NCBI GenBank assembly: GCA_045561055.1
Contig: JBJKYL010000017.1
Location: 325,604-389,603 of the forward strand
DNA: 64,000 nucleotides
Reading direction: 5' to 3'
Source of the DNA: Candidatus Rariloculaceae bacterium
Lineage (GTDB): Bacteria; Pseudomonadota; Gammaproteobacteria; Steroidobacterales; Rariloculaceae
The position numbers and the translations under genes were made by a program. A model generated the notes under the pieces. That model worked only from the letters and a program-made list of their open reading frames with translations, was not told the origin of the DNA and did no database searches. Of this stretch, positions 15,285-64,000 are shown in pieces (within the stretch, counting starts at the first letter, position 1; the number at the start of each line of letters is the position of its first letter).

Positions 15285-15355
15285 GTCTAGCGAAAAAAGG
15301 GCAAAGAATGGTAGGCTAGACATTCATTCTCGTCCTAGTCGAAAGGAGTAGCTCT

Positions 15356-15730
15356 ATGTGCTTTTTCGGTAAGACTTTGGCACTCACAATCGGTATTCTC
15401 ACTGTAATGCTCTCCGGTACTGCAGTAGCTCACCACGGTTGGTCCTGGTACACAAATGGGGACTTCTCGCTGACCGGCGTAATCGCCGAGAAACATTTCG
15501 GTAATCCCCACGACCGTCTCACCATTGAGGCAGACGGCCAAATGTGGAATATCGTTCTCTCGACCCCAAGCCGTAGCCGGCGGGCAAACTTTGGCAATAA
15601 TAACGTCTCGGTCGGCGATGAGGTGACAGCATTCGGCCACCGCCATGCAGACGGCACCACATTAGAAATGAAAACCGAACGGCTTAAGGTAGGCGAAATA
15701 CTTTTCGACCTCTACCCGAACCGAAATTAA
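15356..15730 (+). CDS. Short-form secreted His-His/NPH-motif protein (paralogue S1)
   Basis: 124 aa. The signal peptide ends TAVA|HHGW, and FGNPH lies 11 residues after a conserved Gly. Same architecture as 51624..52001 and the N-domains of three longer ORFs. I believe this is a Pfam DUF (my recollection is DUF6152), unverified. Confidence 0.75.
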   Translation: MCFFGKTLALTIGILTVMLSGTAVAHHGWSWYTNGDFSLTGVIAEKHFGNPHDRLTIEADGQMWNIVLSTPSRSRRANFGNNNVSVGDEVTAFGHRHADGTTLEMKTERLKVGEILFDLYPNRN

Positions 15731-15853
15731 CCGGCTCTAATGAACCTCTCGCTCGGACCCAGGATTCCAATGGGTTTCTGCCCGTACCGGGCTGTTCTTC
15801 CTATCGTTTCATGAGTGGCTAGTTCTAGATAGTATCTGGGGGTACCAATCTAT

Positions 15854-17266
15854 ATGAGGATACTCGTGTCACTATCGGAGACACTAAGGAATCAATGTAG
15901 CCTAATTGTTAACGTTACCTGCTGCTCTATTGTCTCACTATCCATGTGTACCGCAATAAGCCAGGAGTCTTCTGACTACGCCTTCACCCACGTTAACGTC
16001 CTTACAATGGATTCCGCCGACGTGTTGTTGGACCAGACTGTTGTAATCTCTGGAGAGAAAATAGTAGCAATCGGTGCAACCGAGAGTGTCCCGGTTCCCC
16101 ATAACGCCCTTATTATTGATGCCCCTGGCCGCTATCTCATGCCCGGATTGGCTGAGATGCATGGACACGTTCCTGGAAATGATGACCAGCAATACCTGAA
16201 AGACGTACTTTTTCTCTATATAGCTAATGGCGTTACAACCGTTCGCGGTATGCAGGGTGAGCCTAGCCACCTTGAGCTGCGGGCACAACTAGCAAACCAC
16301 GAAATATTGGGACCGCGTTTTATTACATCCGGACCCGGACTTCGTGGTAGCTCGCTCGCCGGCCCCGATGATGCAAGACAAACGGTACTAGCCCAGGCGA
16401 GCGCCGGTTACGACTTCATTAAGCTCCTTCCCGGCCTATCCCAATCTGAGTTTAATGCGGTCGTAATAGCGGCAAATGAAGTAGATATTTCTATTGCTGG
16501 CCACGTATCAGTAGACGTGGGCGTCAGCGGAGCCTTGGACGCGGGGCAAGCTACGATCGATCATCTTGATGGCTACATCCAATATCTGTTACCCCCCGAA
16601 ATAGACCACTCGAAAATTCCCGCAGGTTATTACGGCGTCAACTTACTGGATCTCGTGGATGAAAATCGAATTACTCAGGCTGCTATTGACACTAGGAAAG
16701 CCGGTGTTTCTATAGTACCCACGCAAGCTTTAATCGAACACACCGCAACACCGAGCCCCACGGCGCAGGAGCGAGCTGCTCTTCCTGAAATGGCGTATAT
16801 GCCACCAGAAATCATACAGCGCTGGGTTGAATCTAAAGAACGTAACATTGGGAGAATGCCCGATGTTCCTGAGGCCGCTAGTCACCTGCAAAACATCCGT
16901 AAGCGATTAATAAAAGCAATGCACGATGAGGGTGTCAACCTATTGCTCGGCTCCGATGCCCCACAAACATTTAACGTACCGGGGATATCTCTCCATCAAG
17001 AGCTTAAACTGATAATTGAGGCAGGACTTTCCCCCTACGAAGCATTGCTCACTGGAACAGCTGCGCCGGCAGAGTTTTTTGATCTAGATGACGAGTTCGG
17101 AAGAATTCGCACTGGTCTTGCTGCGGACTTGATACTCGTGGAAAACAATCCGTTGGAGAATATCGACGCTGGAAACTACCCGCTTGGCGTGATGGTTAGA
17201 GGTATTTGGCTAGATCGCGCAACACTAGACGATGGGCTCGCGACAATCGCGGCTCGGCATCGTTAA
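15854..17266 (+). CDS. Amidohydrolase-family metal-dependent hydrolase
   Basis: 470 aa with LMPGLAEMHGHVPG (HxH), ...IAGHVS..., LLLGSDAP and GRIRTGLAADLILVENNPLENI, a typical amidohydrolase tail. The N-terminus and signal peptide are unclear. Confidence 0.8.
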   Translation: MRILVSLSETLRNQCSLIVNVTCCSIVSLSMCTAISQESSDYAFTHVNVLTMDSADVLLDQTVVISGEKIVAIGATESVPVPHNALIIDAPGRYLMPGLAEMHGHVPGNDDQQYLKDVLFLYIANGVTTVRGMQGEPSHLELRAQLANHEILGPRFITSGPGLRGSSLAGPDDARQTVLAQASAGYDFIKLLPGLSQSEFNAVVIAANEVDISIAGHVSVDVGVSGALDAGQATIDHLDGYIQYLLPPEIDHSKIPAGYYGVNLLDLVDENRITQAAIDTRKAGVSIVPTQALIEHTATPSPTAQERAALPEMAYMPPEIIQRWVESKERNIGRMPDVPEAASHLQNIRKRLIKAMHDEGVNLLLGSDAPQTFNVPGISLHQELKLIIEAGLSPYEALLTGTAAPAEFFDLDDEFGRIRTGLAADLILVENNPLENIDAGNYPLGVMVRGIWLDRATLDDGLATIAARHR

Positions 17267-17337
17267 TGAGAAACGTTAAATATATGCCGGGCGTAAGGAA
17301 GCGTTCCTCATGGTACCAGCTAAATTAAAAAACCCGC

Positions 17338-17775
17338 ATGTGGACACAAACTCGAATATGGATCGCTGCTACGGCCATCGCTATCGGGTCAATAGCGCTT
17401 CTGCTTATTTCAGTCGGAGTATTCCTAGACTTACCGCGAGTTGTCGAGAAAACACTCGTCGAGCCCGATAAATCATATTCTCCAACAAGTGAAACATGTA
17501 CATTTCGCGTGTCTGGAACCGTGAAGAATAGTGACGGTCAGCCAATCGCATCGGCTATCATCGAACTCAAAGAAGATGGTCCATTTGCTACAAACGGCCG
17601 CACCGCCACTACGAATTATGCTGGACGTTTTCTCTACACAGAATCGGGTTATGGTACCTGCTTTATGGAGGATCTTTTTCCGACCGTTCTAAGTCAAGGT
17701 CACCTGCCTTGGTCAAGAGATACGGCAGCAACAAACAATGAGGCTTTTGAAATCGTGCTTTCGCTTCCCTACTAA
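17338..17775 (+). CDS. Membrane-anchored hypothetical protein (possible carboxypeptidase-regulatory-like beta-sandwich)
   Basis: 145 aa. N-terminal TM, then FRVSGTVKNSDGQPIASAIIELKEDG, which resembles CarboxypepD_reg-type domains. Weak call. Confidence 0.4.
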   Translation: MWTQTRIWIAATAIAIGSIALLLISVGVFLDLPRVVEKTLVEPDKSYSPTSETCTFRVSGTVKNSDGQPIASAIIELKEDGPFATNGRTATTNYAGRFLYTESGYGTCFMEDLFPTVLSQGHLPWSRDTAATNNEAFEIVLSLPY

Positions 17776-17830
17776 TTTCTAGCGTTAGCATCACCTAACC
17801 AATCAGTACGTAATCTAGATAAGGAGAAAA

Positions 17831-19114
17831 ATGATGTCAAAAACAAGCGTTTTTCGGTACCCACAGCTCTGTTTATGGGCACTACTCTCTTCCGCGTTTT
17901 CTCACTCAGCAGAACTCACAGAGCAGATATATGACCGTAGCGTCTATTTTTCTAATCTAGACACTGATAACAACGAATTTTTAGCAAAGGGTGAATATAA
18001 CGGCACACCACAACTGTTCGAGGCGATGGATAATAATAGCGACGGTCTAATCAGCAAGGACGAAGCAAAATATATGATTACGTTTGCTGATATTCCCTCG
18101 GGTGGTTTTACAATGGGCACAGAAAGCACTACGCCTACTGTCGTCCCTCTTCGAAATGCCGGCCCGGAGCATACGGTTTCTGTTGACGGGTTTCAGATGG
18201 CGCATACTGAAATCACGACCGCGCAGTATGCCCGTTTCCTAAACTCAGCCCTTAAAGAGGGAAAAATAACGGTTTCAAGAGCCAACTCTGGCCCCGCTCG
18301 TATCGTTTATCCACTTCCTATCTGGTCAGTTTATGGGGCGCCGGGAACTGAACATGAAGGAAAGCTATACAATGCCATTAGTCCGGTTTCCGGCCTATCG
18401 CACATTAGGGCACAGGGGCACCCACACCTCATTCCTGAGCATCCACTAAACCAATCATGGATAACCTATATACCCGAGATCGAGCAGTTTACCGTTGCCT
18501 TAGGCTTCGAGGACTGGCCCGCAGCATTTATAAGATGGTACGGGGCGATGGCATTTGCCGACTACTACGGGCTATCACTTCCCACGGAGGCCGAATGGGA
18601 ATATGTCGCCCGCGGCGGCATGCAATTTAGATTCGCTACAAGTGATGGAACGATTGGCTGCAGTGTCGCTAATTATCGGTGCTATAACGGGATGCAAAGA
18701 CAAAATTATACGGGAGTCGATACACCTAACGAATATGTAGGTCATAGGGTTAACGTAGGTAGCTATCCCGCAAACCCTTTCGGAATATTCGATTTAGCGG
18801 GAAACGTATGGGAGTGGTGCCTTGACTGGTATGACGAGAACTTTTATCAAAACCTCGTAGACAATAAGATTGTCCGTAATCCTATCAACCTAACCGGAAT
18901 CGAGCCACCAACCGGTATATTGGTAACGGGTCCAGCGGGCAGCAATGAAAACTCTCCTGATGCGCGCGTAACTCGAGGCGGCAGTTATCAATACCATGAA
19001 ACTACAACAGAAACAGCTTTCCGAAACGGTATGTACCCCTTCCGAGGAAATGATCATTGGGGATTTCGTGTTGTTATACGCTCATCATCGACCGTTTTTA
19101 ATGGCAATGAATAA
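17831..19114 (+). CDS. Secreted EF-hand + formylglycine-generating-enzyme (SUMF1/FGE-sulfatase) domain protein
   Basis: 427 aa. Signal peptide, two EF-hand-like loops (DTDNNEFLAKGE, DNNSDGLISKDE), then LPTEAEWEYVARGG, GNVWEWCLDWY and RVTRGGSY, which are typical of the FGE domain. Confidence 0.75.
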   Translation: MMSKTSVFRYPQLCLWALLSSAFSHSAELTEQIYDRSVYFSNLDTDNNEFLAKGEYNGTPQLFEAMDNNSDGLISKDEAKYMITFADIPSGGFTMGTESTTPTVVPLRNAGPEHTVSVDGFQMAHTEITTAQYARFLNSALKEGKITVSRANSGPARIVYPLPIWSVYGAPGTEHEGKLYNAISPVSGLSHIRAQGHPHLIPEHPLNQSWITYIPEIEQFTVALGFEDWPAAFIRWYGAMAFADYYGLSLPTEAEWEYVARGGMQFRFATSDGTIGCSVANYRCYNGMQRQNYTGVDTPNEYVGHRVNVGSYPANPFGIFDLAGNVWEWCLDWYDENFYQNLVDNKIVRNPINLTGIEPPTGILVTGPAGSNENSPDARVTRGGSYQYHETTTETAFRNGMYPFRGNDHWGFRVVIRSSSTVFNGNE

Positions 19115-47804: not shown

Positions 47805-49227
<1,423 letters not shown>

Positions 49228-49310
49228 CTCGACCTTTGAAAAGCCCCAGTCGAAGCACTAGCGTATCATCGTATAAGACGGAATCGGTTCTCGAAAAGAG
49301 CTAAAGCTCG

Positions 49311-49847
49311 CTACCTTGGTCTGATTCTTGCTCCTGACATCCCCTTGCTTTCATCCGGCGGCTCTGGAAGTTTGCACTCTAGCGTGGCCCACTCGAGTTC
49401 ACGATTTGCATCCAGATTATTCATCATATAAGCCGCTGATTGTATGAAACTCATTTGACCGCGCAGCTCGTTTTCGAGATTCCTGATGTCCATTCTCGAT
49501 AGTCGCGACCCAATTCGTAGTCTCCCCGTAAGATCACAACGGAAGCTTAGTTCATTTCCAAGTACTGAAAAATCCTCAAACCTGACCTCTCCGTTTGGCT
49601 TACGACCCCATGCCCAGGTGAAGTCGCTCTTCGGCAGATTCATCTGACCCGGGAAGCCACTACTAAACTGAGCGCCGACCGTATTTAAGACAAACAAATT
49701 TAATAGCAAACTAACGCCGATCCGACCAATCGCACTTTGAAAGCCTTCTGTAGACCTAGCATCGAAAAACATAATTATCTCCTCGGACACCCGGCAAACC
49801 GATATTTTATTAACCCTGTTCCCGTGTAACCATGTGAACCGCATCAA
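49311..49847 (-). CDS. Secreted hypothetical protein
   Basis: 178-aa ORF. The probable start is the internal MFFDARSTEGFQSAIGRIGVSLLLNLFVLNTVGA (signal-like). No family recognised. Confidence 0.45.
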   Translation of the reverse strand: MMRFTWLHGNRVNKISVCRVSEEIIMFFDARSTEGFQSAIGRIGVSLLLNLFVLNTVGAQFSSGFPGQMNLPKSDFTWAWGRKPNGEVRFEDFSVLGNELSFRCDLTGRLRIGSRLSRMDIRNLENELRGQMSFIQSAAYMMNNLDANRELEWATLECKLPEPPDESKGMSGARIRPR

Positions 49848-49896
49848 AATAAAGACAGGGTAGATCCCCCAAATACGGTGCTGAGCTCCGATTGAT

Positions 49897-50004
49897 TTAT
49901 AACACCTGGGTATCCACTACCCACGGCCCCAAGAGTACCTCCGGATCGTACACAGTAACGTCATACCGGAACGTGTTTCCAATATGGGTAAAACGTTCGT
50001 CCAT
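49897..50004 (-). pseudogene. 35-codon fragment resembling the C-terminal motif of the long His-His family
   Basis: My translation is MDERFTHIGNTFRYDVTVYDPEVLLGPWVVDTQVL*. Compare ERFSLSADSALLNYSITITDPVVFKSPF (52105..53127) and ERFSLSVDKNQLNYEMIVTDPATFTEPV (61686..62750). A TGA lies immediately upstream in frame. Confidence 0.35.
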
Positions 50005-50219
50005 TCATCTCCACGATCATTTAACTTCAATCCAAACTAAATAACATAAAGTATTATGCCTTGTGTACAATCCTTATATAGGAAACCACTCACGTGCACG
50101 CATAACTCCCTAACCTACTTTGAGCTAGTATAACTTCCAGATAGAACCCATAAATTAATATCTCAAAGTATCCCCTCTAAATGCTTGGCTCATATTCCAC
50201 AAATATTAAAAGGACTGCT

Positions 50220-50900
50220 ATGATCTCTAGGAAGGCTCACCGTAGCGCAATGTTGTTCACCGTAATTTCCATATCTGGAATACTAACCGGGCAGGCGCAA
50301 GCTCCTCTCGATACAGAGGAATCAAAAATTCTTTACGCCCTCGGTATTGCCCTTGCCCAGAACCTCGATACACTCAACCTAACCGCGGATGAACTCGTGC
50401 TGGTAAACCAAGGCATTGCCGATGGCGTCTTGGCCCGGGATCAACGAGTTGACATGCAGGAGTACGGTCCCAAGCTTCAAGCTTTCGCTGAACAACGTGT
50501 CGGCATCACAACGAGTGCAGCGCAAGCCGAAGGGGAACTATTCCTAGAACAAATGGCAAATGAAGCAGGTGCTATACGAACAGCTTCCGGTTTGGTATCC
50601 ATCGAAACGGTCACGGGAACAGGTGCGACCCCTGCAGCGATGGATACTGTTACGGTTCACTACCACGGTACTTTCACAGACGGATCAGTTTTCGATAGCT
50701 CTGTTGAACGTGGTGAACCGGCGAGCTTTGCGCTAAATCAAGTCATCCCATGCTGGACGGAAGGCCTACAGCTCATGCAAGTCGGCGGTAAGAGTCGTAT
50801 CGTCTGCCCTTCCGATATCGCATACGGCGATCAGGGAAGGCCTGGGATTCCACCCGCCTCCGTCCTCGTATTCGAAATCGATTTACTCGCGATCGAATAA
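50220..50900 (+). CDS. FKBP-type peptidyl-prolyl isomerase (FkpA/Mip-like, periplasmic)
   Basis: Signal peptide, helical N-domain, then an FKBP domain (VTVHYHGTFTDGSVFDSS...PASFALNQVIPCWTEGLQLMQVGGKSRIVCPSDIAYGDQG). ATG 50220 has an AGGA Shine-Dalgarno. Confidence 0.88.
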   Translation: MISRKAHRSAMLFTVISISGILTGQAQAPLDTEESKILYALGIALAQNLDTLNLTADELVLVNQGIADGVLARDQRVDMQEYGPKLQAFAEQRVGITTSAAQAEGELFLEQMANEAGAIRTASGLVSIETVTGTGATPAAMDTVTVHYHGTFTDGSVFDSSVERGEPASFALNQVIPCWTEGLQLMQVGGKSRIVCPSDIAYGDQGRPGIPPASVLVFEIDLLAIE

Positions 50901-50923
50901 CGGCAGACGAAAAGCAACCGTAG

Positions 50924-51604
50924 TTATCTTGGATGTAAGGTGAGACTCGGTGGATCACCGACCCAACGTTCCCCGGTTTCTACGCGGTTTTTCTGAATTT
51001 CGCCGTTATCATCCGAATAAAACTCGTATCGGATCCTTCTACCTTCAACGTCCAGGATACCGAGAGACTGTTGAAAAAGTACCGGTGGCGGCGAATTAAT
51101 TGAGACCGTTGCTTCTACTATGTATAGCCGCCGTACATGCCGAAATATCCCAGCGTAAGTTCGTGTTTGATCACCGTTCGTAATGTGCAACTGATGTCCC
51201 GCGATACGATCATAGGCCGCCCAAGAATCATAGGTTAGTTCGCCACCTCGTTTCCTTATATTCCACGCTGCATAGTCGACCGCACCTAAAATATCGCCTG
51301 GCAAATCGTCCCCCCTAGTGCGCGAATCACGTTCTCTTAACAAACGCTCGGCATCCGTATAGTCAACCACAGTGACTGAGTAACGATTGGGACCATAATT
51401 CGCTGTATAAACCCGAGCAGGAAGAAGTGCGCGGTATTCAGAAAGGTATGTCGTTTCCGTTATCTCTGGATCACCGGCAAAGTTAATGGTGAACTGATCG
51501 GTTAGGTTCGCGTATTCGATCCACTCCTGTGTTAAACCGATACCTGGAGAAAAAACAACAACCAAAGTAGCAAGCAATATTGATACACGCATATCCACCT
51601 CCAA
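50924..51604 (-). CDS. Secreted hypothetical protein (last gene of the amidohydrolase / His-His operon)
   Basis: 226 aa with the signal MRVSILLATLVVVFSPGIGLT|QE. It begins about 19-31 nt after the upstream gene. No family recognised. Confidence 0.55.
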   Translation of the reverse strand: MEVDMRVSILLATLVVVFSPGIGLTQEWIEYANLTDQFTINFAGDPEITETTYLSEYRALLPARVYTANYGPNRYSVTVVDYTDAERLLRERDSRTRGDDLPGDILGAVDYAAWNIRKRGGELTYDSWAAYDRIAGHQLHITNGDQTRTYAGIFRHVRRLYIVEATVSINSPPPVLFQQSLGILDVEGRRIRYEFYSDDNGEIQKNRVETGERWVGDPPSLTLHPR

Positions 51605-51623
51605 AAAATTGCGGCGCTAGGTC

Positions 51624-52001
51624 TCAGTCGAACTCTTTCTCAACACCGGCTTCGTTAGTAATGTACCCGAGCAAACAGCCAGATGAACCGTCCTTGAGGG
51701 GATGACAGCGAACAGATATATCGTCTCCGACCTGAACCATCTCCGTAGTCCAACCCTTCCGAAAAAGCGTTCTCGCCGCCGCACCCTCAAGAACCCACAA
51801 ATCTGGTTCATCGTTAGAGCCTAAGACCTCTAGGTAAACCCAAGAATGCGGGTTCAACCAATGAATCTCTCGTACCGTACCTTCCATGACCAAGTACTCA
51901 GCCCTGATAAAATTCTGATGAGAATGATGCGCTGCTGCTGGGAGAACCGTGAAAACTAATACAACAAATACAAAGGTAATGTTGTTCCTAAACACATTCA
52001 T
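51624..52001 (-). CDS. Short-form secreted His-His/NPH-motif protein (paralogue S2)
   Basis: 125 aa. The signal ends PAAA|HHSH, then EGTVREIHWLNPH. Same length and register as 15356..15730. Confidence 0.8.
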   Translation of the reverse strand: MNVFRNNITFVFVVLVFTVLPAAAHHSHQNFIRAEYLVMEGTVREIHWLNPHSWVYLEVLGSNDEPDLWVLEGAAARTLFRKGWTTEMVQVGDDISVRCHPLKDGSSGCLLGYITNEAGVEKEFD

Positions 52002-52104
52002 ATCGAGATCCTTTGGTCACCATTTGACAAGACTCTAGCATTCCAGGATTGCTCCCGCGTTGTCCAAGCGTACCAAACTAACAATCAAATTACAGACAAC
52101 AACT

Positions 52105-53127
52105 CTACCATTCAGTAACGCAATTAAGCGCTTCTATTTCGACACCTGGAGCCCAATCGCGCGTTGAATCAATCGTAAAGGGGCTTTTGAAAACTACCGG
52201 ATCAGTGATTGTTATCGAATAATTCAACAACGCACTATCGGCCGATAAGGAAAATCGCTCAAAGTAACTGACTTCTGTTGATTGCGGTGTGCCGATCACC
52301 GAGTAATAAGGCCAGGCCACGTGCGTTGTTCTGACGACGAGGTCATCACCCTCCCAACGGCCCACAGAATAGCCCAGAGGCGATGATTGGGACCTCTCAC
52401 CGACTTCCATCGAATTCATATGGACTAAGCGCTCAACGCCAGCCTGCCGGACATTTATGACTATATCGTCCCCGCGTTTTACAAATTCCAGCGGGACTGG
52501 GTCGAACATCGTGTCCGGCATACCTTGTTGGCAGTAGAGCTCCAGATTATCGACAATAGGATTATAGACCTGAGCTAATCGGTGCCCCTGATCCGTAAGT
52601 GGCTGTGCCTCGACGATTCCTCTAAGCAGTGAACCGAGACCAGAACGTCTGCCCCAAACGCGAAAAAGGCCATCAGCTTCTCGTTGCGCTAAAGCAACCT
52701 TCGTGGGATCAATATCCGCAGTCGGCGCCAGAGCCGTTCCCATCCAGAGAAATTCACGATTACCCTGCACCAACTCCTGTCCATCCGGTAACAAAAGGTT
52801 TAACACACCGAGAGATCTCGGGTTCCGCTTAGATACATATCCAGCAACACTCGCACGCCCCAAAAAACTTTCAGGTGATATACCTCTACGCTCTAAGGCA
52901 CGTGGAGAGGGCCCTAGTTCCAATTCCCAGATAGTCTCCTCACCATCATTACTGAAAGATTTTACTTTCGCCCGCACATGGGGATTACGCCAAAGCACAT
53001 CAACGAACTGCCCTTCGACTTCAATGACACGGTCGGTAAAATACAAGACTTCATTCGAAGGCGGCCCATGATGAGCCGCTGCTGACAGTGCAAATAACAA
53101 CAAACACGGCAAGAGCGGTCGTTCCAT
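52105..53127 (-). CDS. Long-form secreted His-His/NPH-motif protein (paralogue L-A)
   Basis: 340 aa. The signal ends SAAA|HHGP, then EGQFVDVLWRNPH. C-terminal ~200-aa domain with GYSVGRWEGDDLVVRTTH, ERFSLSADSALLNYSITITDP and two conserved Cys. Confidence 0.8.
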   Translation of the reverse strand: MERPLLPCLLLFALSAAAHHGPPSNEVLYFTDRVIEVEGQFVDVLWRNPHVRAKVKSFSNDGEETIWELELGPSPRALERRGISPESFLGRASVAGYVSKRNPRSLGVLNLLLPDGQELVQGNREFLWMGTALAPTADIDPTKVALAQREADGLFRVWGRRSGLGSLLRGIVEAQPLTDQGHRLAQVYNPIVDNLELYCQQGMPDTMFDPVPLEFVKRGDDIVINVRQAGVERLVHMNSMEVGERSQSSPLGYSVGRWEGDDLVVRTTHVAWPYYSVIGTPQSTEVSYFERFSLSADSALLNYSITITDPVVFKSPFTIDSTRDWAPGVEIEALNCVTEW

Positions 53128-53128
53128 C

Positions 53129-54403
53129 TCAACGTGTCATTAACGCAGCACGATCGACCTGTTCTCCACGGAGGTAAACCCGTGAGATCCGCCGCGTATT
53201 CTTAATATTCTCAAGAGGATTAGCAGAAAGCACAATAAAATCTGCGCTTTTACCTACTTCGATTGTGCCCATATCAGTTAATCCCAACGCGTCAGCTGAA
53301 TTCTTAGTAGCGGCTACTATAACTTCGCCTGGCGTCATACCAGAAATCACCATGTCTTCCATCTCAGTATGTGGCGCCCAAGGCGTATTTCCATCAGTAC
53401 CCATAGCAATAGTCATCCCTGCGATATTGAGTCGGGCCAGATTACGGGACTGAATACCAAAAGCTACTTTAGCCTGAGAGTTATCTTCCCCGGCCCGTAG
53501 TGCGGCTAATTCCTCATTGGGTATCGAACCGGTAAGCCAGCTCGGATCAATCGCAACACCGCGTCCGGGCAAATTGGGAATAAGTACAACATCGGGATTT
53601 TCGCGCACCAGTTGGAGAAATTCGTCATCTATATCCTGATCGCGAACGCCATGCGCGAAAATATCTACACCCGCGCGAAGTAGGCCTTTTCCATCTTCAA
53701 GATCAAATATATGTGCAGCCACCTTCAAGCCTTGCGCATGTGCTTCCTCAATAACCGCTCCGTAAATTTCGGGAGTCAGCTTCACAAATTGATCATCTCG
53801 ATCATCGACCCAAACCTTGATTAAGTTAACGTTGCGGGCAGCCTCTATTCGAACGGCCTCGCGAGCCTCTTCCTCAGTCCCAACCCAGTGGACCACCCGG
53901 CGCCCCGGTTCCGGACCAACAATGCCGTGACCAGCTGACAAAAACCGTGCTGTCCCCGGAATTGTTTCATCACGCAGATCGAGTGGAGCGTCCGGCCCGT
54001 CTGATCCCATACTAATAGCAGCACCAACCCCAAAATATGCACGCCGTTGCAGATCCTCTATCAGAGTGTCACGGCTAGTAGTCATATGCGTATGCGCATC
54101 AACGATCGCAGGCATAACCGTCATTCCAGCTAGATTCACCCGCGTTGCTGCCTCCGGCACGGTGTACGCACCTATCTCACCCACGGCAGTGATTTCACTA
54201 TTTGAAACAGTAAACATTCCATTTTCGATTACAGCGCCGTTACCTACAATGAGCCTTGCTCCCTCGTATACAACACTATTTCGAGGCGCCTGTCCTTGAG
54301 CGCAGGCTGTAAGTAAAACAAATGCAACTGCAAGCACCAAAGGCTGTCCTGTAATGCCCCCGCAATACGATTTTATGTTTTTTGTCTGCATCGTAATCTC
54401 CAC
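53129..54403 (-). CDS. Secreted amidohydrolase-family metal-dependent hydrolase
   Basis: 424 aa. Signal/lipoprotein-like leader (LVLAVAFVLLTACAQG), VMPAIVDAHTHM (HxH), ...VAAHIF..., IAMGTDGN and GTIEVGKSADFIVLSANPLENI. Its stop is 1 nt from the L-A start. Confidence 0.85.
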   Translation of the reverse strand: MEITMQTKNIKSYCGGITGQPLVLAVAFVLLTACAQGQAPRNSVVYEGARLIVGNGAVIENGMFTVSNSEITAVGEIGAYTVPEAATRVNLAGMTVMPAIVDAHTHMTTSRDTLIEDLQRRAYFGVGAAISMGSDGPDAPLDLRDETIPGTARFLSAGHGIVGPEPGRRVVHWVGTEEEAREAVRIEAARNVNLIKVWVDDRDDQFVKLTPEIYGAVIEEAHAQGLKVAAHIFDLEDGKGLLRAGVDIFAHGVRDQDIDDEFLQLVRENPDVVLIPNLPGRGVAIDPSWLTGSIPNEELAALRAGEDNSQAKVAFGIQSRNLARLNIAGMTIAMGTDGNTPWAPHTEMEDMVISGMTPGEVIVAATKNSADALGLTDMGTIEVGKSADFIVLSANPLENIKNTRRISRVYLRGEQVDRAALMTR

Positions 54404-54633
54404 AAATAATTTTTTTATACCTTACGTTAGATAAATGTTTTGATATCGGCCATCAATAAATAATCCATCTCCAACCAGCGAAATCCAACTAGCCTAAGGG
54501 CTATTGCTTGGCAAGTTATCGAGAAAACGGTCACGATCGTTATAAGCCCACCGGCCACTGATCATTTGATTTCATAGAAATAGTGTTTCTTAACAACTCA
54601 TCAACGGCAACCTCTGGTTACGGCAAACTAGTT

Positions 54634-54670
54634 GCCCCTGCGACAAAGCTCAGGGGCATTTATTTTTCTT
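54634..54670 (+). terminator. Orphan intrinsic-terminator-like hairpin
   Basis: GCCCCTG - 10-nt loop - CAGGGGC followed by ATTTATTTTTCTT. There is no plus-strand gene upstream; the neighbour is a minus-strand gene start. Confidence 0.4.
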
Positions 54671-54767
54671 CCTACACCTATCACCTATTGACCTTAAGGT
54701 GAGCACCATCAACAGGTAGCGTATTCTTAATTGTTTCAGATCACAATTCCTAACGAGCACATAGCCT

Positions 54768-55016
54768 TTGAACGAACCATTCCTCATATATCAGCTCCGT
54801 CCGGAAGATACAGTTGCGGAAAATGAGTTCGAGAAAATATGTCGCTATGGAGGATTGCAAGCAAGCGAAGTCGTTCGAGTAAGGATCCACCATACAAGTC
54901 TGCCCAAAATCCAACTCGAAAACTATTGCGGGATCATTGTCGGTGGAAGCCCACTCGACGTGAGCATACCGGAGGACGCGAAAACCCAAATACAAAAAAG
55001 GAAGATACGCCTCTAG
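54768..55016 (+). pseudogene. N-terminal ~80-codon remnant of a class I glutamine amidotransferase (GuaA-like GATase1 family)
   Basis: (TTG)NEPFLIYQLRPEDTVAENEFEKICRYGGLQASEVVRVRIHH..LPKIQLENYCGIIVGGSPLDVSIPEDAKTQIQKR matches the N-terminus I recall for ~240-aa stand-alone GATase1 proteins. It stops after ~82 codons, before the catalytic Cys/His region. Confidence 0.55.
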
Positions 55017-55017
55017 C

Positions 55018-55050
55018 GAAGAAAATACTCTACCGATCCGTTAGTCGGTA
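55018..55050 (-). terminator. Probable terminator of aprA
   Basis: On the minus strand, just after the aprA stop: TACCGA - 8-nt loop - TCGGTA followed by GAGTATTTTCTTC. The stem is short. Confidence 0.4.
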
Positions 55051-55062
55051 CCGACAAGTTTT

Positions 55063-56907
55063 CTAATCAATCATATGATGTACGGGCGCCTTTTCCATAT
55101 CCCAGCTCTCCGAGTCCTTGTCATACTGGGATAAAGTGAAGCAATGCCAATCGGAATCGTCTAACTTTGGATGATCGCCGCGATAATAGTATCCAGGCCA
55201 CCGAGTTTCTGTCCGGAACATCGTGTGATGCGTTACGGATTCCGAAGCTAGCAAGCGATGCTGCAGTTCCCAGGCTCGCTGAAGCTGATGAAGATCCTCG
55301 GCCCCTATACAATTGAGGTCTTCCTTTAGCATCCCCAACAACTCTAGCCCACGGGTCAATAGCGGCTCGTTAGTGATATAGTTTGCCCCAATACCACCAA
55401 CGTATTCGTCCATAATCTTCTCAAGACGTTGGAGCCCCTGTATCGGAAGTAGGTAACTCGGAGAAACAGTGCCCCCCACTATCTCGTTACGACCAACTTC
55501 GTAATTTTCCATCGGTTGAAAAACTTTCTTCTTTAAGTCTTCGTACTCCGCCTCGCTCACCTCAGGCCGATCGTTACCTAAATCATTAACGTAGTTAACC
55601 GCTGCCTTAGCAGCAATCCGCCCTTCCGCAAATGATCCTGAAGAAAACTTGTGGGCCGCGCCCCCTATGGTATCACCGGCACCGAAAAGCCCGTCGACGG
55701 TCATCATCCGATTATATCCCCACTGATAGTCCGAGGGCGCCAAATCTTCCGGACCGCTAGCCCATGCGCCGGAGCACGTCGCATGGGAACCCATGACGTA
55801 GGGCTCGGAGGTCGTCAATTCGGGATTCGTATGTTTTGGATCAATATTCTGCGACGCCCACACTACCGCCTGTCCAATGGTCATGCCGAGGAAATTCTCC
55901 CAACCGACAGTTTCCTTATGCGGGTCCTGAAAAGCCTCCTTCGTCACCATTCGGATCGGGCCTCGACCAGCCTTCAGCTCCTCTAGCAGAGCGTGATTTC
56001 GAAGACAGGTTGGCACCGGTTGCCTATCAACGTAATCCCCCACCAATTCCCTAGTATGGTCATACCATTTAGACTCATATTCTTCACCGTACGCGTTTTC
56101 AGTATGTGTCTTGAGATGTAGGAAGTAGGCACCAACCGGACCATATCCATCCTTAAACCGAGTAAGGACAATACGATTTTCCATCTGTGTCATCTTGGCA
56201 CCAACGAGGATCGGTAATGCATATGCAGAAGCACTACTCCATGGGGCATACCATGTCCTCCCCATACCCTCACCAACCGCACGCGGTTTATAAATATGTG
56301 ATGCGCCACCGGCACACACGATAACGGCATTCGCACGGAAAACGAAGAAATCACCACTACGAACATTGAAACCAACGGCCCCAGCAACTCGATTAGGCTT
56401 GGTTTTGTCCATCAATAGGTGGGTCACCATGATGCGGTTATAAACTTTTGTTGCAGCTTTTCGCGCAGCCTCAGCAACGATCGGCTTGTAACTTTCACCA
56501 TGAATCATGATCTGCCATTTACCTTCTCGTTGATACTGTCCCGTTTCCGGGTCTCTCATCATCGGAAGGCCCCACTCCTCAAACTTATGCACTGAGGAGT
56601 CAACATGCCGGGCGATGTCATAACCAAGATCCTCACGCACAAGACCCATCAGATCATTTCTAGCGTAGCGGACATGGTCTTCAGGTTGGTTCTCGTTCCA
56701 CTGCATGCCCATGTAGGTATTAATCGCATACAGACCTTGGGCAACAGCACCGCTGCGCTCAATATTCGCCTTCTCGACACATACAATTTTAAGGTCACGC
56801 CCCCAATACCTAGATTCGTAAGTAGCACCGCAACCAGCCATACCTCCGCCGATAACGAGAATGTCTGAATCAACAAAAACAGTTTTTCTCCGAGAGAAAA
56901 GGCCCAT
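55063..56907 (-). CDS. aprA: Adenylylsulfate (APS) reductase alpha subunit
   Basis: 614 aa. FAD fold DILVIGGGMAGCGA and fumarate-reductase-like flavoprotein patterns. TAATG overlap with aprB and canonical aprB-aprA order. Confidence 0.85.
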   Translation of the reverse strand: MGLFSRRKTVFVDSDILVIGGGMAGCGATYESRYWGRDLKIVCVEKANIERSGAVAQGLYAINTYMGMQWNENQPEDHVRYARNDLMGLVREDLGYDIARHVDSSVHKFEEWGLPMMRDPETGQYQREGKWQIMIHGESYKPIVAEAARKAATKVYNRIMVTHLLMDKTKPNRVAGAVGFNVRSGDFFVFRANAVIVCAGGASHIYKPRAVGEGMGRTWYAPWSSASAYALPILVGAKMTQMENRIVLTRFKDGYGPVGAYFLHLKTHTENAYGEEYESKWYDHTRELVGDYVDRQPVPTCLRNHALLEELKAGRGPIRMVTKEAFQDPHKETVGWENFLGMTIGQAVVWASQNIDPKHTNPELTTSEPYVMGSHATCSGAWASGPEDLAPSDYQWGYNRMMTVDGLFGAGDTIGGAAHKFSSGSFAEGRIAAKAAVNYVNDLGNDRPEVSEAEYEDLKKKVFQPMENYEVGRNEIVGGTVSPSYLLPIQGLQRLEKIMDEYVGGIGANYITNEPLLTRGLELLGMLKEDLNCIGAEDLHQLQRAWELQHRLLASESVTHHTMFRTETRWPGYYYRGDHPKLDDSDWHCFTLSQYDKDSESWDMEKAPVHHMID

Positions 56908-57368
56908 TACGCCCCTCCCGACATATCGCGATGTGGTTTCAAGCTAGGCAACTTTTCGATGTTCAGCGCTTCTGGTTCATGAGCAAGCTCCTGATTCTTA
57001 AAATCATCATGGCTCGGCAATTCGTAATCCGCCGGTGATTTAATCGAACCCCATGGTGTAGTTCGGATTGGAGAAACAAAATTCTTTTCTCTACCATCCC
57101 GAAATTTAACGCTCCACGAAATAACCCCCTTTTTTTCCTCTCTTAGCACTCGAACACTGTGCCCTAGAGGGGCGAAATCGGCATAACCGCGTACGTCAAT
57201 TGCGTTCTGCGGGCAAGCCTTAACGCAGGAATAACACTCCCAGCAAAAATTGGGTTCAATGTTAACCGCACGACGATAGGTCGTATCAATGTGCATAATG
57301 TCCGATGGGCAGATATCGACACAATGTCCGCAACCATCGCAACTTGTCATGTAAACAAACGTCGGCAT
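56907..57368 (-). CDS. aprB: APS reductase beta subunit (two [4Fe-4S])
   Basis: 153 aa. MPTFVYMTSCDGCGHCVDICPSDIMHID and CWECYSCVKACP clusters, with the long C-terminal tail typical of AprB. Confidence 0.85.
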   Translation of the reverse strand: MPTFVYMTSCDGCGHCVDICPSDIMHIDTTYRRAVNIEPNFCWECYSCVKACPQNAIDVRGYADFAPLGHSVRVLREEKKGVISWSVKFRDGREKNFVSPIRTTPWGSIKSPADYELPSHDDFKNQELAHEPEALNIEKLPSLKPHRDMSGGA

Positions 57369-57433
57369 TACTTTTCCGCTCTCCTATTTTCGAAAAACAA
57401 TAACGGACTATCCCGCAAAAATGAATGAATCAA

Positions 57434-58219
57434 TTAATAATTACTAGAGCCCTCGCGAACACTGCCAAGCGTTTCTGGCTTGTCCGCAGACAGTGGCATG
57501 TTGTTCCTAGAGCCATTCGCTTCCTCTACTCGTCTTTGAAAGGAAGCTGCGGGCTTAAAGAACATATGGGCAAATTTAGACCATGGCACAGTTCCAAAAA
57601 GTATCGTTGTCGCTATCACGTACAACCCAAAAACCACATTTACCCACGAGTTATTTAAGACTTGGAAATACGCCCAAACTAAAGCTAGTGTTCCGCTTCC
57701 AACAAGCGCGAGAATAAACAGATCCGCTCGTACAACCCGGAATGGCGAATTTCCCTCAGCAGTAACGTCGACCCGAATAAAAAACCAAAACCAATAGCCA
57801 CCGAAACAAACCATCAAGGCTCCGATATGCCAGAGAAACGGGAGGATCGCGGGCGCAAGAGTAGCGGGCGTCGGATACCAAAACACCATAGCAACAGTTG
57901 TAGCGGCATATGCCAAAAAACCGTACATAGTTATGAGGTGGGCAATTCTGCGACGCGTGTTACAGAATTCACCAGACATCAGCGCCTCAACCACAACCGT
58001 TTTAACAGCCAGAGCAGCCATATCACCAGGACTAACCGACTGGGTACCCTTATTCTTCACATCGCGCCAATTTCTAAAAAAATATTGCGCACTCTTTTTA
58101 TGTAGTACGTCGTACACCGTTCCAGCCATAACCAGAATTATCATAACGATGATGTAACCCTGCATGACAAAAGGCGATAAGAACGCCGAAAGCTCTGCGA
58201 ACGGATTGGTAGTAAACAT
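57434..58219 (-). CDS. aprM: Putative APS reductase membrane anchor AprM
   Basis: 261 aa with about 5 TM helices, directly upstream of aprBA as in Allochromatium-type sat-aprMBA loci. Called from position and topology rather than recalled motifs. Confidence 0.6.
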   Translation of the reverse strand: MFTTNPFAELSAFLSPFVMQGYIIVMIILVMAGTVYDVLHKKSAQYFFRNWRDVKNKGTQSVSPGDMAALAVKTVVVEALMSGEFCNTRRRIAHLITMYGFLAYAATTVAMVFWYPTPATLAPAILPFLWHIGALMVCFGGYWFWFFIRVDVTAEGNSPFRVVRADLFILALVGSGTLALVWAYFQVLNNSWVNVVFGLYVIATTILFGTVPWSKFAHMFFKPAASFQRRVEEANGSRNNMPLSADKPETLGSVREGSSNY

Positions 58220-58400
58220 TAATAGAGGATTCCGATGCTAAGCAGTGATTGCCGCAGCGTAATTAATAACTTCATTCGACCTACTAAATGTCGCTAAGTA
58301 ATTAAACCGATGACCTATAATAAAAAACTATTATATGTAAATTACACGCTAGAATAAAGAGGTTCTAGTGACCTATACAGCTAAGAAAGAACTGTGTTGG

Positions 58401-59570
58401 TCAGCAACTGTCGTAAAACCGCTGTAGTACCGCGATTACTTCACTGCGACTGAACTCGGGCGGAATTGGTTCGTGTTTCGCGAGCATTTCACGCAGCCGC
58501 GTACCCGAAATCGTCAATCGGTGCTCCATCGCGTGCGGACAGGATTTACCTGTCGCCATACCATTGCATTGGTAGCAGAAAAAGGTAATGTCGATCTTAA
58601 GCGGCTGAATCTTAAGGCTATCAACCGATAGACTGTCAAAAATATCGTGAGCATCAAACGGCGCATAATAATCACCGATACCTGCATGGTCACGGCCCAC
58701 TATCAGGTGTGAGCAGCCGAAATTCTGGCGAAACACCGCGTGTAACAACGCCTCACGCGGTCCCGCGTAACGCATCTCAATTGGATAACCGGCTTGTAGA
58801 ACAGTACCTGGCACGAAATAATTTCGAACCAACGCATCGATAGCCTCAATCCGAGCCTCCGCCGGTAAATCACCTGGCTTAAGAGCGCCTAGCACTTGGT
58901 GAATCAGTAATCCGTCACAGATTTCTATAGCTATCTTTGCCAAATACTCATGGCTCCGATGCATTGGATTACGAGTCTGAAAGGCGGCAACCTTTGTCCA
59001 ACCATTTTCTAGAAAAAGAGCCCGCGTTTCCGTTGGACGCAAGTATAGACCGGGGAAGCTATCAGGAAAATGTCCCTCGGACAGGGTACATACCCGCCCG
59101 CCGAGATTAACTGGTCCCTGCCCTAATACCTTCGCGACGCCAGGATGCGCAACATCAGCAGTACCGTATACCTGCAAACATTCAAACTCACGATCAATAC
59201 AGTATTTATCCTCGATAGTAAGGACACCGATCAGATCACCGGTATCCCCGTCAACCAGCGCCACATCCTGACCAACACTTATACTATTAGCGAGCTTTTC
59301 AGTACAAGATAGCGTAATCGGAATGGGCCAGAAAAGCCCATCGGCTAATATCATATGTTCGCAGCAACCGCGCCAGTCTTCTTCGCTCATAAAACCCTTA
59401 AGCGGCGTGTAGGCGCCCATACCGAGCATGAAAAGATCAGAAACTTCGCGACTTGTTAAAGGAACCTGTTTGAGTTTATTTGCACGGACTCTTTCTTTTG
59501 TTCTCTCAGGATCAGATAAAAGAAGGGGCTTGAGGGAGTCCGCACCGTGCGGCAAAATAAGACTCGACAT
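58401..59570 (-). CDS. sat: Sulfate adenylyltransferase (ATP sulfurylase, homo-oligomeric Sat type)
   Basis: 389 aa with [13 protein letters not shown] (HxxH), VGRDHAG and a PUA-like N-domain. Confidence 0.87.
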
Positions 59571-61685: not shown

Positions 61686-62750
61686 ATGAAAAGAAATCTT
61701 CAGCTAACTTTAGGCCTTTCACTACTTATTATCTCGATAACCGGCCAGGCTCATCATTCCCGAGCCAGTTTTTTCGATATGAGCCAAACCGTTGAGCTCG
61801 AAGGAGTAATAACACGGGTTCAATGGCGCCACCCTCACGTACGTTATTGGATCCAAGCCGACATAGAATATGGCGGCGAAGAATGGGAGATGGAAACTAC
61901 GCCGCCGAGCATTCTAGAACGTATGGGTATAAGCCCTGATATTTTGGTCGCCGGGACACGCGTTCGTGTCGCAGGACCGCCCTCCAAGCTGGTTGCAAAC
62001 GCGATGGAAGTGAGCCACGTACTGCTACCTGATGGCCGGGAAGTATTGCTCCATACTGGGCGGCGGCCACTATGGACGGAGAACGCTGTAGAACGAAACC
62101 TCCAGGGATTCGAAGAGGAGGCTGTCCGCGCTGCGGAGGCATCGGCTGACGGTATCTTTAGAGTGTGGAGCCGGGGCCGTGACGATAATAGACCTCAATT
62201 TTGGCTCGACAGTTATCCGCTAACGGAGGAGGCTAGCGCGGTAGTCGAAATCTGGGATCCTGTCACGGGAATTAATACCGGCTGCGCGGGCAAGGATATG
62301 CCCTGGCTAATGAGCAGCTCCTGGCCGTTTGAGTTCGTGAACGACGGGGAGTCGATCCGTTTGTTAGCAGAAGAATTCGATCGAGTTCGAATCATCCATC
62401 TAAGTGCGCGGTCAAGGAGTCCTTTACATTCGCCACTAGGCTATTCCGTTGGTCATTGGGAAAATGGCAGCCTGATCGTGACCACGACTCACATTAGCTC
62501 GATGAGCTTTAATGGCCGAGAGATTCCTATGAGCCGCGAGGCAAAGATACGCGAAAGATTTTCCCTGAGCGTAGATAAAAATCAGCTTAATTACGAGATG
62601 ATAGTTACTGATCCCGCAACGTTTACGGAACCTGTAACAATGAATTCACACTGGATCTGGCGACCTGGCGAAACGGTTAATCTATATAACTGTATCGAGA
62701 CACCTGGGTCCTGGACCAACGTTGAAAACAAGACACTACTCGAGAATTAA
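61686..62750 (+). CDS. Long-form secreted His-His/NPH-motif protein (paralogue L-B)
   Basis: 354 aa. The signal ends TGQA|HHSR, then EGVITRVQWRHPH. C-domain GYSVGHWENGSLIVTTTH, ERFSLSVDKNQLNYEMIVTDP and two conserved Cys. Confidence 0.8.
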   Translation: MKRNLQLTLGLSLLIISITGQAHHSRASFFDMSQTVELEGVITRVQWRHPHVRYWIQADIEYGGEEWEMETTPPSILERMGISPDILVAGTRVRVAGPPSKLVANAMEVSHVLLPDGREVLLHTGRRPLWTENAVERNLQGFEEEAVRAAEASADGIFRVWSRGRDDNRPQFWLDSYPLTEEASAVVEIWDPVTGINTGCAGKDMPWLMSSSWPFEFVNDGESIRLLAEEFDRVRIIHLSARSRSPLHSPLGYSVGHWENGSLIVTTTHISSMSFNGREIPMSREAKIRERFSLSVDKNQLNYEMIVTDPATFTEPVTMNSHWIWRPGETVNLYNCIETPGSWTNVENKTLLEN

Positions 62751-62964: not shown

Positions 62965-64000
62965 TCAACCGGAACTTAAGTAAGGCAGGCGACAGTCAAC
63001 CTCAACAAAGTCGTAAACATCGGCTGTGTAGTATTTTATTGAGCCAAGTTCCCAAGATCTCGTCAGGTTACCTGGGTCTGTGACGATCATGCGCATTTCG
63101 ATAGCCGGCCCTACCGCTGAATTATCGAGTCGACGGTAGATCTCTACCGTCGTAGCCTGGTCGCTAAGGGCATTACCACGCGGACCCGTTAGATTGGCAA
63201 GCAACTGATTGCTCTCAATGACTAGTGTATCGCCTTCGTAGCGAGCAATATGGTACCCGAAAAGTGTATTCTCACTAGTCTCAGGATCACGTTCATCGAG
63301 ATAAATAACACGCCGAGCAGCGAACTCTTCATACTCAAAGACGAGCCGATCGTCGTGCTGCGTAATTCGTAGCGGGCGTATCGTTGTAGCCTGACGAACG
63401 AGTCCAGCATCTGCGCATTCCGTGAACGCCGGATCATCTTCGAAAGGATCGAATGTATTTTGTGCAGCAGCAGCCTGTACGTTAAATGGAGGATTGTCTC
63501 GACCTAGCCCGTCCCGAGATCCGAGCCACATACCGTTTAGGTTTGGACGCCCATCATTGTGTCGTAGGTTGAGTGTGGGGATGGTCGTCGACGGAGTCAT
63601 CTCACGTGATGGCCGAGAAATATCGCTCGTACTACTGACCGTTCGCAAGACAACTCTATCAGTCGGGCTAATCTCGACAATTTTGCCGCCGTGAATATCC
63701 GCCTCTTCCATCAGAATCATCGGCCCACCATCACGGCTTTTTCGCCCAAAAATACGCAAAAATTGGCCCGGCCGAACCGTATCTGGCGTCCAACCCCATC
63801 TACGGAAAGGCGTTGGACCTGGACCAGTCGCCATCCACTCCGTCTCAACGCCCTTTTCATCAGTAACCGTTAAGATGATATTCAAGTGAGGGTTTTTGAA
63901 ATTGAATTCCGTTACAAGGCCTTCGATCTCTATATCGTCAGCGGAGAACACAGCCGATGATCTGTGATGCGCCTGAGCTACATTCGATACAGGCATGCCA
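62965..64000 (-). CDS. Long-form secreted His-His/NPH-motif protein (paralogue L-C); N-terminal signal peptide runs off the window
   Basis: The frame is open to position 64000. ...VAQA|HHRSS, EGLVTEFNFKNPH; C-domain FGYHIARYEGDTLVIESNQ, ...IEMRMIVTDP and two Cys at equivalent positions. Confidence 0.75.
   Translation of the reverse strand, partial: GMPVSNVAQAHHRSSAVFSADDIEIEGLVTEFNFKNPHLNIILTVTDEKGVETEWMATGPGPTPFRRWGWTPDTVRPGQFLRIFGRKSRDGGPMILMEEADIHGGKIVEISPTDRVVLRTVSSTSDISRPSREMTPSTTIPTLNLRHNDGRPNLNGMWLGSRDGLGRDNPPFNVQAAAAQNTFDPFEDDPAFTECADAGLVRQATTIRPLRITQHDDRLVFEYEEFAARRVIYLDERDPETSENTLFGYHIARYEGDTLVIESNQLLANLTGPRGNALSDQATTVEIYRRLDNSAVGPAIEMRMIVTDPGNLTRSWELGSIKYYTADVYDFVEVDCRLPYLSSG

Follow-up and report, generated by a model that had tools for sequence, protein, structure and literature searches.

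Paired and fused forms of DUF6152 proteins at a four-gene locus of Candidatus Rariloculaceae

Four minus-strand genes lie close together between positions 50,924 and 54,403 of a stretch of Candidatus Rariloculaceae DNA (64,000 nucleotides of contig JBJKYL010000017.1; hereafter the window). In the direction of transcription they encode an amidohydrolase (AH2), a long and a short protein that both carry two adjacent histidines (L-A and S2) and a further exported protein (X). The first-pass annotation, made from the sequence alone, took these genes for one coherent system, and the locus therefore raises the question of whether the four products belong to a single machine or to smaller units that adjoin here. 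The genome comparisons described below lead us to read it as a juxtaposition of AH2, L-A and an S2-X pair, and not as a four-part machine. What emerges is a module built of two parts, an architecture that we regard as highly probable: L-A would be its single-chain version, an exported DUF6152 domain with a predicted OB-fold (oligonucleotide/oligosaccharide-binding fold) fused to a calycin-like barrel, while S2 and the PsbP-like X would form a two-chain version of the same design with another partner.

Conserved partners of DUF6152 proteins

S2 (51624..52001, minus strand; 125 aa) and the N-terminal domain of L-A (52105..53127, minus strand; 340 aa) belong by score to the Pfam family DUF6152 (PF19649), whose gathering threshold of 27 bits they pass with 91.2 and 33.7 bits, the match in L-A covering residues 12-86. 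The long form differs from the Pfam family in adding a second, C-terminal domain of about 230 amino acids that has no Pfam model and found no Pfam, NCBIfam or PDB sequence match. X (50924..51592, minus strand; 222 aa) gave no NCBIfam match, no Pfam match even at E ≤ 10 and an empty result in a profile search of the PDB. The initial impression that the non-hydrolase proteins lack characterised relatives was thus borne out, DUF6152 being only a Pfam DUF, and X and the C-domain being without any family match. The PDB holds no match to S2 or L-A by sequence or profile, a literature search found no mention of DUF6152 or PF19649, and no partner, fold, function or remark on an N-terminal His-His was found for the family in Pfam, NCBIfam, the PDB or the searched literature. 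These are large families, with multiple members in the genomes of widespread marine and soil bacteria: among the matches listed, X has 1569 homologues and, at 50% identity, 1306 representative clusters, and L-A has 1389 homologues.

To define the partners of these proteins we took a census anchored on X, with one genome per species, which yielded 80 reference-genome loci whose open reading frames (ORFs) were classed by hidden Markov models built from our own alignments. A short DUF6152 gene on the same strand stands directly beside 70 of the 91 X genes in these loci, and 7 of the 21 exceptions are at contig ends. The two genes occur in either order (X before S in 36 cases, S before X in 34) and are tightly spaced, with median gaps of 13 and 36 nt. 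The pair, of which a genome often holds several, occurs across Gammaproteobacteria (Ca. Rariloculaceae, Arenicellaceae and UBA lineages), Acidobacteriota and Rhodospirillaceae. Seen from the other partner, the 100 short DUF6152 genes of the X-anchored loci comprise 70 that pair with X, 26 whose partner is a free-standing homologue of the C-domain of L-A and only 3 that are alone. Fusions with DUF6152 in front of the C-domain number 109, and the reverse order was encountered 0 times. Since the C-domain exists both as a stand-alone protein beside a short DUF6152 protein and as the second half of these 109 fusions, L-A represents an S+C pair in fused form. A natural fusion of the S-X kind was also found (P0263; three sequences on four contigs), in which DUF6152 again comes first and the signal peptide of X has been lost.

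The partnerships are mirrored in the relationships among the DUF6152 domains themselves. The nearest relative of an X-paired short form is itself X-paired in 58 of 60 cases, and that of a long form is another long form in 100 of 105, so that alignment places the domains in partner-specific subfamilies. All nearest relatives of S2 adjoin an X gene, which assigns S2 to the X-paired type, whereas S1, a second short form of the window, is by the same comparison a divergent orphan. X and the C-domain gave an hhalign probability below 1% when homology between them was considered, and they therefore represent two unrelated partner types. A conserved third partner of S-X pairs was sought in 148 flanking proteins by a Pfam census and all-against-all clustering, and none was found; the commonest flanking families are cytochrome c (6), the metallo-beta-lactamase fold (6) and pyrroloquinoline quinone (PQQ) dehydrogenases (5), and no sequence cluster is larger than five. 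Judged by these neighbourhoods, S2 and X are an autonomous conserved unit whose place downstream of AH2 and L-A we take to be incidental.

Several variations on these arrangements were observed. A 20.6-kb locus of a metagenome-assembled genome (L031; JAOTTJ010000008.1) packs about 15 S, X, C-only and long-type genes into 20 kb, among them three S-X pairs, two tandem long forms and several S+C groups. A third type of module, in which two stand-alone proteins precede a short DUF6152 protein, occurs in L092 (12158-15542), L175 (10821-13266) and L178 (2930-6905), the last being plasmid NZ_CP103870.1 of Novosphingobium humi, a cultured carrier of a related module. Both stand-alone proteins match the C-domain model in L092 and L175, while the first protein of N. 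humi has a weak GH39 match only. Beside the modules of L092 and N. humi stand tandem membrane proteins of the DUF6644 type, whose match to DUF2214 is weak and sub-threshold; such pairs were seen in 8 of about 170 loci and are not present in the window. In a search of plasmids X was unmatched, and L-A was matched only through its C-domain, in Novosphingobium plasmids. Within the X family, tandem X-X duplications and, in other members, unrelated N- or C-terminal extensions were seen (P0242 and P0281; P0246, P0247, P0300 and P0312).

The amidohydrolase and the four-gene set

AH2 (53129..54403, minus strand) is an amidohydrolase of lipoprotein type and belongs to the peptidase/amidase clade cog1228. 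It scores 70.7 bits with Amidohydro_1, above the cut-off of 25, and 60.3 bits with Amidohydro_3, and its motif set is complete (H104/H106, K196, H231, H251 and D337); by their position in the motifs, the HxH, Lys, His, His and Asp residues would be the ligands of a binuclear metal centre. Among solved structures its best sequence relatives are the cog1228 enzymes Cc2672 L-Arg carboxypeptidase (3mtw), a zinc arginine carboxypeptidase (3be7) and a prolidase (2p9b), together with ochratoxinase (4c5y), ochratoxin amidohydrolases (8ihq) and phenylurea and molinate hydrolases. AH2 shares the putative metal-ligand motifs of this group and differs from it in matching with partial coverage (E 1e-10 to 1e-22) and in having a lipoprotein signal. 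We considered whether it might be an orthologue of the Caulobacter-type Xaa-Pro dipeptidase, and the equivalog model NF051886 of NCBIfam gave 118 bits against a cut-off of 500. From these comparisons AH2 is an amide or peptide hydrolase that is related to, and not orthologous with, that dipeptidase. The signal of AH2 ends in a lipobox-like LTAC at residues 31-34 (Cys34 in the 424-aa reading), which makes it a probable lipoprotein; of the original label, secreted amidohydrolase, the export signal and the enzyme class stand, but a soluble secreted enzyme is not what the lipobox points to.

How far do the four genes travel together? The order AH-L-S-X is conserved at 95% L-A identity, where one contig (L090) holds all four genes and a shorter one (L091) ends inside the fourth, and again at 60% L-A identity (L092), but beyond this distance it dissolves. 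The closest homologues of L-A outside the lineage, at 57-58% identity, sit behind a sulfatase, and a relative at 52% (L095) is found in the order TonB receptor, L, L, Amidohydro_3. In OZ250159.1, a complete Rariloculaceae genome of 4.39 Mb, L-A, S-X and AH2 find their best homologues in three separate loci. An amidohydrolase related to AH2 lies within 10 kb of only 10 of the 91 X genes and an L gene adjoins only 7 of them. A dominant partner of long forms was sought among 44 same-strand neighbours and none was found; amidohydrolases account for 3 of the 44, and no family has more than three members. Co-localisation of homologues, on which the first-pass annotation had staked its proposal, is consequently strong for S and X and largely absent for the four-gene set, and the one coherent system that it envisaged finds no support in its original form.

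A dedicated periplasmic system for one substrate, made up of AH2, L-A, S2 and X, is thus quite improbable, given how rarely amidohydrolase or L genes accompany X, the sulfatase that takes the upstream place in the nearest outside homologues and the dispersal of the three units in OZ250159.1. Such a system would be in keeping with the order kept in L090, L091 and L092, with the single nucleotide between AH2 and L-A and with the absence of an internal terminator-like site in our scan. It could also draw on the second amidohydrolase of the window, AH1 (15854..17266, plus strand), which is of the same broad clade by Pfam and 23% identical to AH2 by BLASTP: the window has no further amidohydrolases of this kind, and AH1 and AH2 both adjoin a DUF6152 gene. 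The gene order of L095, which ends in Amidohydro_3, would suit it as well.

Approached from the hydrolase, the association looks firmer, and this weighs to some degree against treating AH2 as a mere neighbour. The AH2 orthogroup is tight (62-76% identity), and in each of the 4 contexts sampled from orthologues with 66-76% identity an L gene or a C+S module lies within 6 kb; one of the AH2-type loci (L175) has the order AH, C-only, S, the split equivalent of AH followed by L-A. Because DUF6152 modules stand within 6 kb in all four contexts, a functional coupling between AH2 and L-type modules is possible, and by gene neighbourhood AH2 has a moderate association with such modules that is limited to the lineage. 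Our reading of the locus as a juxtaposition accommodates this, in that the modules may sometimes work alongside an exported hydrolase such as AH2.

Amino-terminal histidines and predicted folds

N-terminal hydrophobic signals are present in all four products, as had been noted at the outset; we judged them by the -3/-1 rule and hydrophobicity only. In 219 of 226 DUF6152 proteins a His-His stands directly behind a canonical -3/-1 signal-peptidase site and hydrophobic core, and because of this position the two histidines should open the mature chain as its first two residues, which bears out the earlier expectation of a His-His mature N-terminus at the level of prediction. In L-A the signal peptide spans residues 1-18 and is followed by the DUF6152 OB-fold (about 19-120) and the C-terminal domain, a helix plus beta-barrel (about 121-340). 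The codons of His19-His20, at the predicted mature start between AAA and HH, occupy 53068..53073 (minus strand) and are invariant in 60 of 60 aligned long forms; those of N48-P49-H50, a candidate third metal ligand, occupy 52978..52986 (minus strand), with P49 and H50 invariant and N48 nearly so. The invariant residues of L-A also include W67 and C336, and since C199 is nearly invariant in the C-domain, a C199-C336 disulfide is probable from conservation. The predicted mature N-terminus of S2 is HHSH, its HH codons lying at 51924-51929. In most members of the family HH and xPH are 24-25 residues apart, and the signature of a signal peptide, then HH, then xPH 24-25 residues on, which is derived here and not by Pfam, is present in both proteins (AAA-HHG...NPH in L-A and AAA-HHSH...NPH in S2, the hyphen marking the predicted cut). 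Short forms additionally carry a conserved Glu and a Cys-His...Cys motif, and for S2 the family consensus reads HHSH...NPH...W..E...VRCHxLRDGSxGCLLG.

AlphaFold2 models of L-A and X, built with family alignments, were confident, with predicted local distance difference test (pLDDT) values of 89.3 and 90.6. Foldseek aligned the DUF6152 part of L-A with OB-fold proteins (SSB, PriB and the N-domain of LysRS), and the family is accordingly predicted, from the model, to be an OB-fold. The C-domain was aligned with the FABP/CRABP/SAHS barrels, a weak match with a target-normalised template modelling (TM) score of about 0.5 and probability of 0.97-1.0; the model predicts a calycin-like barrel, which differs from known calycin barrels in having no sequence similarity to them and a helical insert of about 70 residues. 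For X, the model and Foldseek suggest a PsbP/Mog1-like fold. PsbP and CyanoP were its best matches, and DcrB, LpqN, Eag chaperones, Mog1, Tsi3 and Tli4 were also retrieved. Against PsbP structures E was about 2e-4 with probability 1.0, TM scores were 0.35-0.58 (0.45-0.58 when target-normalised) and the root mean square deviation was 6-10 Å. X is, on the other hand, some 40-50 residues longer than PsbP-fold proteins, with extra C-terminal strands and invariant polar motifs of its own (YSVTVVDY, GHQLQITN and FQQSL), and it is found in non-photosynthetic bacteria. Membership of the PsbP family proper (PF01789) was considered and set aside, there being no sequence match to the family model.

The occurrence of the PsbP/Mog1-like fold in Tsi3, Tli4 and Eag chaperones might suggest that S and X are a secreted toxin-immunity or competition pair, and the small adjacent genes, their interchangeable order and the paralogous arrays could be taken in the same sense. 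Yet X is highly conserved between phyla, its mean column identity being 46% and many of its polar residues invariant, signal peptides are present on both partners, and no toxin domain, type VI secretion or Rhs context was seen; we find this explanation scarcely credible. A PADLOC search for defence or toxin-immunity systems matched none of the four proteins.

The position of the histidines invites comparison with histidine-brace proteins. In these, which include the lytic polysaccharide monooxygenases (LPMOs) of AA9 and AA10, CopC, PmoB and YcnI, the protein is exported, an invariant His at position +1 of the mature chain chelates copper via the amino terminus and a second invariant His follows. 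Amino-terminal copper binders include LPMOs and methane monooxygenase, and NH2-Xaa-His is a known high-affinity Cu(II) motif. DUF6152 proteins resemble the brace proteins in being exported, in beginning with His once processed, although in S2 and L-A this is the case by predicted cleavage only, and in having a second invariant His later in the chain. They differ in that two adjacent N-terminal histidines are conserved instead of one, in the partner domain that accompanies them and in their fold, since the known brace proteins are immunoglobulin-like or cupredoxin-like sandwiches. Membership in a known family of this kind (LPMO AA10, CopC or YcnI) was rejected, the predicted fold being an OB-fold and the only Pfam match DUF6152. 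The term His-brace-like, used in the first description of the locus, may hence apply to the predicted mature N-terminus but not to the predicted fold.

Taking architecture and N-terminus together, we propose the following, with a probability of roughly 0.45 for the explanation as a whole. The free amino terminus, the imidazoles of His1 and His2 and the histidine of NPH would form a putative mononuclear metal site, with copper the likeliest metal. The partner, X or the C-domain, would bind beside this site and supply either a pocket for a substrate or ligand or a docking surface. The place of action would be the periplasm of marine and soil heterotrophs, with imported organic compounds as targets. 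Taken on its own, a metal site at the N-terminal histidines is, from the pattern of conservation, somewhat favoured, and DUF6152 always coming first in fusions is what would be expected if a free amino terminus were needed. If there is a metal, the analogy with the brace proteins makes copper a reasonable though by no means firm choice. As to function, the odds are about even that the modules are oxidative enzymes rather than carriers or chaperones. The multiple copies in a genome and the pocket-type folds of the partners hint weakly at a substrate-diversified catabolic role, and so does the presence of hydrolase, TonB receptor, cytochrome c and PQQ dehydrogenase genes nearby. The most ambitious form of the proposal, in which DUF6152 would be a new OB-fold copper centre of the histidine-brace type in periplasmic oxidative enzymes that attack organic matter with interchangeable partners, we consider unlikely. 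In that form the PsbP-like partner would join in trans and the calycin-like barrel in cis or trans, and the enzymes would make up a large family, diversified by substrate, that serves marine and soil heterotrophs alongside hydrolases and TonB-dependent uptake.

Several observations weigh against a metal site of this kind. No known histidine-brace family is built on an OB-fold. CusF, a small periplasmic OB-fold chaperone of Cu(I)/Ag(I), offers a precedent for an OB-fold that handles copper, which for DUF6152 is a putative role, but it binds its metal via Met, His and Trp inside the barrel and not N-terminally, it has no X- or C-type partner, and it was not among the top 50 Foldseek matches of the L-A model. 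Many paralogues per genome, and arrays such as that of L031, would be unusual for metal homeostasis proteins, and the flanking genes show no consistent theme, the largest family and the largest cluster among them amounting to 6 and 5 of 148.

The same evidence bears on the notion that DUF6152 modules are periplasmic metallochaperones or metal buffers, similar to CopC, CusF or ZinT, that deliver Zn or Cu to exported metalloenzymes, for example the binuclear-metal amidohydrolase next door. The His-His/NPH signature would suit such a role, as would neighbours like amidohydrolases, metallo-beta-lactamase-fold and cyclase-family proteins and PQQ dehydrogenases, which we take to be metal-dependent enzymes. 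The tandem DUF6644 membrane proteins that occur with some modules (8 of about 170 loci) also loosely recall, in our view, the company that CopC keeps with CopD. Several X/DUF6152 loci in single genomes and dense arrays strike us, however, as atypical of metal trafficking, most S-X pairs have no metalloenzyme neighbour, and a partner domain of the ligand-pocket type is left without explanation, so that we hold this role to be unlikely.

A further possibility is that no metal is involved and that the modules are periplasmic proteins which bind or escort incoming nutrients or lipids of the envelope and in which the His-His touches an anionic ligand or serves as a pH switch. OB-folds, calycin barrels and PsbP/DcrB/LpqN-like folds each have members known for binding, and the proteins that our models resemble (FABP/CRABP, SSB, DcrB, LpqN and Eag chaperones) are binding proteins. 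TonB-dependent receptors and hydrolases stand beside L-A-like genes in L001, L094 and L095, as they do in nutrient-uptake loci, and the many paralogues would fit substrate diversification. This account is doubtful in either form, as it explains neither why two histidines occupy precisely the first mature positions in 219 of 226 proteins nor why DUF6152 invariably leads in fusions.

As far as we searched, the pairing rules, the fused and split forms, the mature N-terminal His-His and the predicted folds are undescribed in the literature and the PDB, and the literature search found nothing that joins a histidine brace to an OB-fold. If the metal centre proves true, the amino-terminal copper binders, so far a short list, would gain from these modules another fold and a two-part architecture. 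Should they turn out to be ordinary ligand-binding proteins, the rules of S+X and S+C/L pairing would still improve the annotation of thousands of hypothetical genes. The locus now yields points that can be tested, namely which two proteins should bind one another and which three histidines to probe.

Gene boundaries and the surrounding window

The ORF listing places the four minus-strand ORFs where they had been reported, at 53129-54403, 52105-53127, 51624-52001 and 50924-51604, with lengths of 424 aa (AH2), 340 aa (L-A), 125 aa (S2) and 226 aa (X, when read from TTG). Each gene has hundreds to thousands of homologues, the closest with E-values that reach 1e-100 to 1e-260, and by this measure all four are real genes. 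The spacing also agrees with the original description: one base separates the TGA of AH2 from the ATG of L-A, 103 nt lie between L-A and S2, and 19-31 nt between S2 and X. The last gap depends on the start of X, being 31 nt to the ATG at 51592 and 19 nt to the TTG at 51604. We consider the ATG most likely to be the true start, with GGAGG upstream and a product of 222 aa, the length of a 100%-identical database protein (P0121); the position of the last gene was thus correctly reported, but not its 226-aa start. The same applies to AH2, whose location stands but whose start is most likely the ATG at 54391 instead of that of the 424-aa reading, with GGAG upstream and a product of 420 aa, as in its closest homologues.

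In a consensus scan no terminator-like site was found within the cluster and one was found upstream of it, at 54503-54490. This hairpin (54490..54503, minus strand), which lies between aprA and AH2 and is known from the consensus scan only, is the probable upstream limit of the transcription unit, and a single transcript of the four genes is plausible. The single metatranscriptome run that we checked gave zero reads on the region. The locus sequence is present in many marine metagenomes (DNA runs), and no structured RNA was matched in Rfam within 49000-56000.

Directly upstream of the cluster, at 55063-59570 (minus strand), lie aprA, aprB, a gene for a 261-aa membrane protein without Pfam match and the gene for ATP sulfurylase; aprA is also upstream of the cluster in the 60% relative L092. 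The apr and ATP sulfurylase genes suggest a marine gammaproteobacterium that oxidises sulfur or uses the adenosine 5'-phosphosulfate pathway. In marine metagenome run X3 one contig skips 426 nt of the aprA/AH2 intergenic region (window positions 54481-54906), a deletion with a direct repeat of about 10 nt, AAATCCAAC, at its borders. An 82-aa ORF (54768-55016, plus strand) that overlaps the missing segment looks like the N-terminal remnant of a glutamine amidotransferase, and L092 has an intact 163-aa gene of this kind near the corresponding place. On the other side of the cluster, purB, for adenylosuccinate lyase, is split into two overlapping ORFs on the plus strand, 47805-48230 with positions 1-96 of Lyase_1 and 48172-49227 with positions 104-305 plus ASL_C, and is either a frameshift pseudogene or the product of an assembly indel.

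Three more genes of the window score above the PF19649 threshold, S1 (40.2 bits), LB (54.7 bits) and LC (50.4 bits), which brings the total to five DUF6152 genes in 64 kb. S1 (15356..15730, plus strand) belongs to the few short forms that have neither an X nor a C partner and is about 31% identical to its nearest relatives. It lies in a second DUF6152 neighbourhood at 14493-19114 (plus strand), probably what the earlier annotation had in mind as its first module, where the order is a metallo-beta-lactamase-fold/glyoxalase II-like gene, S1, AH1 directly downstream of it, a gene for a 145-aa protein with a weak CarboxypepD_reg match and one for an FGE-sulfatase-domain protein. LB (61686..62750, plus strand) and LC (62965..63996, minus strand) are by Pfam long-form paralogues, LB consisting of DUF6152 plus the C-domain and LC having an N-terminal signal peptide that runs off the end of the window, where the two genes converge.

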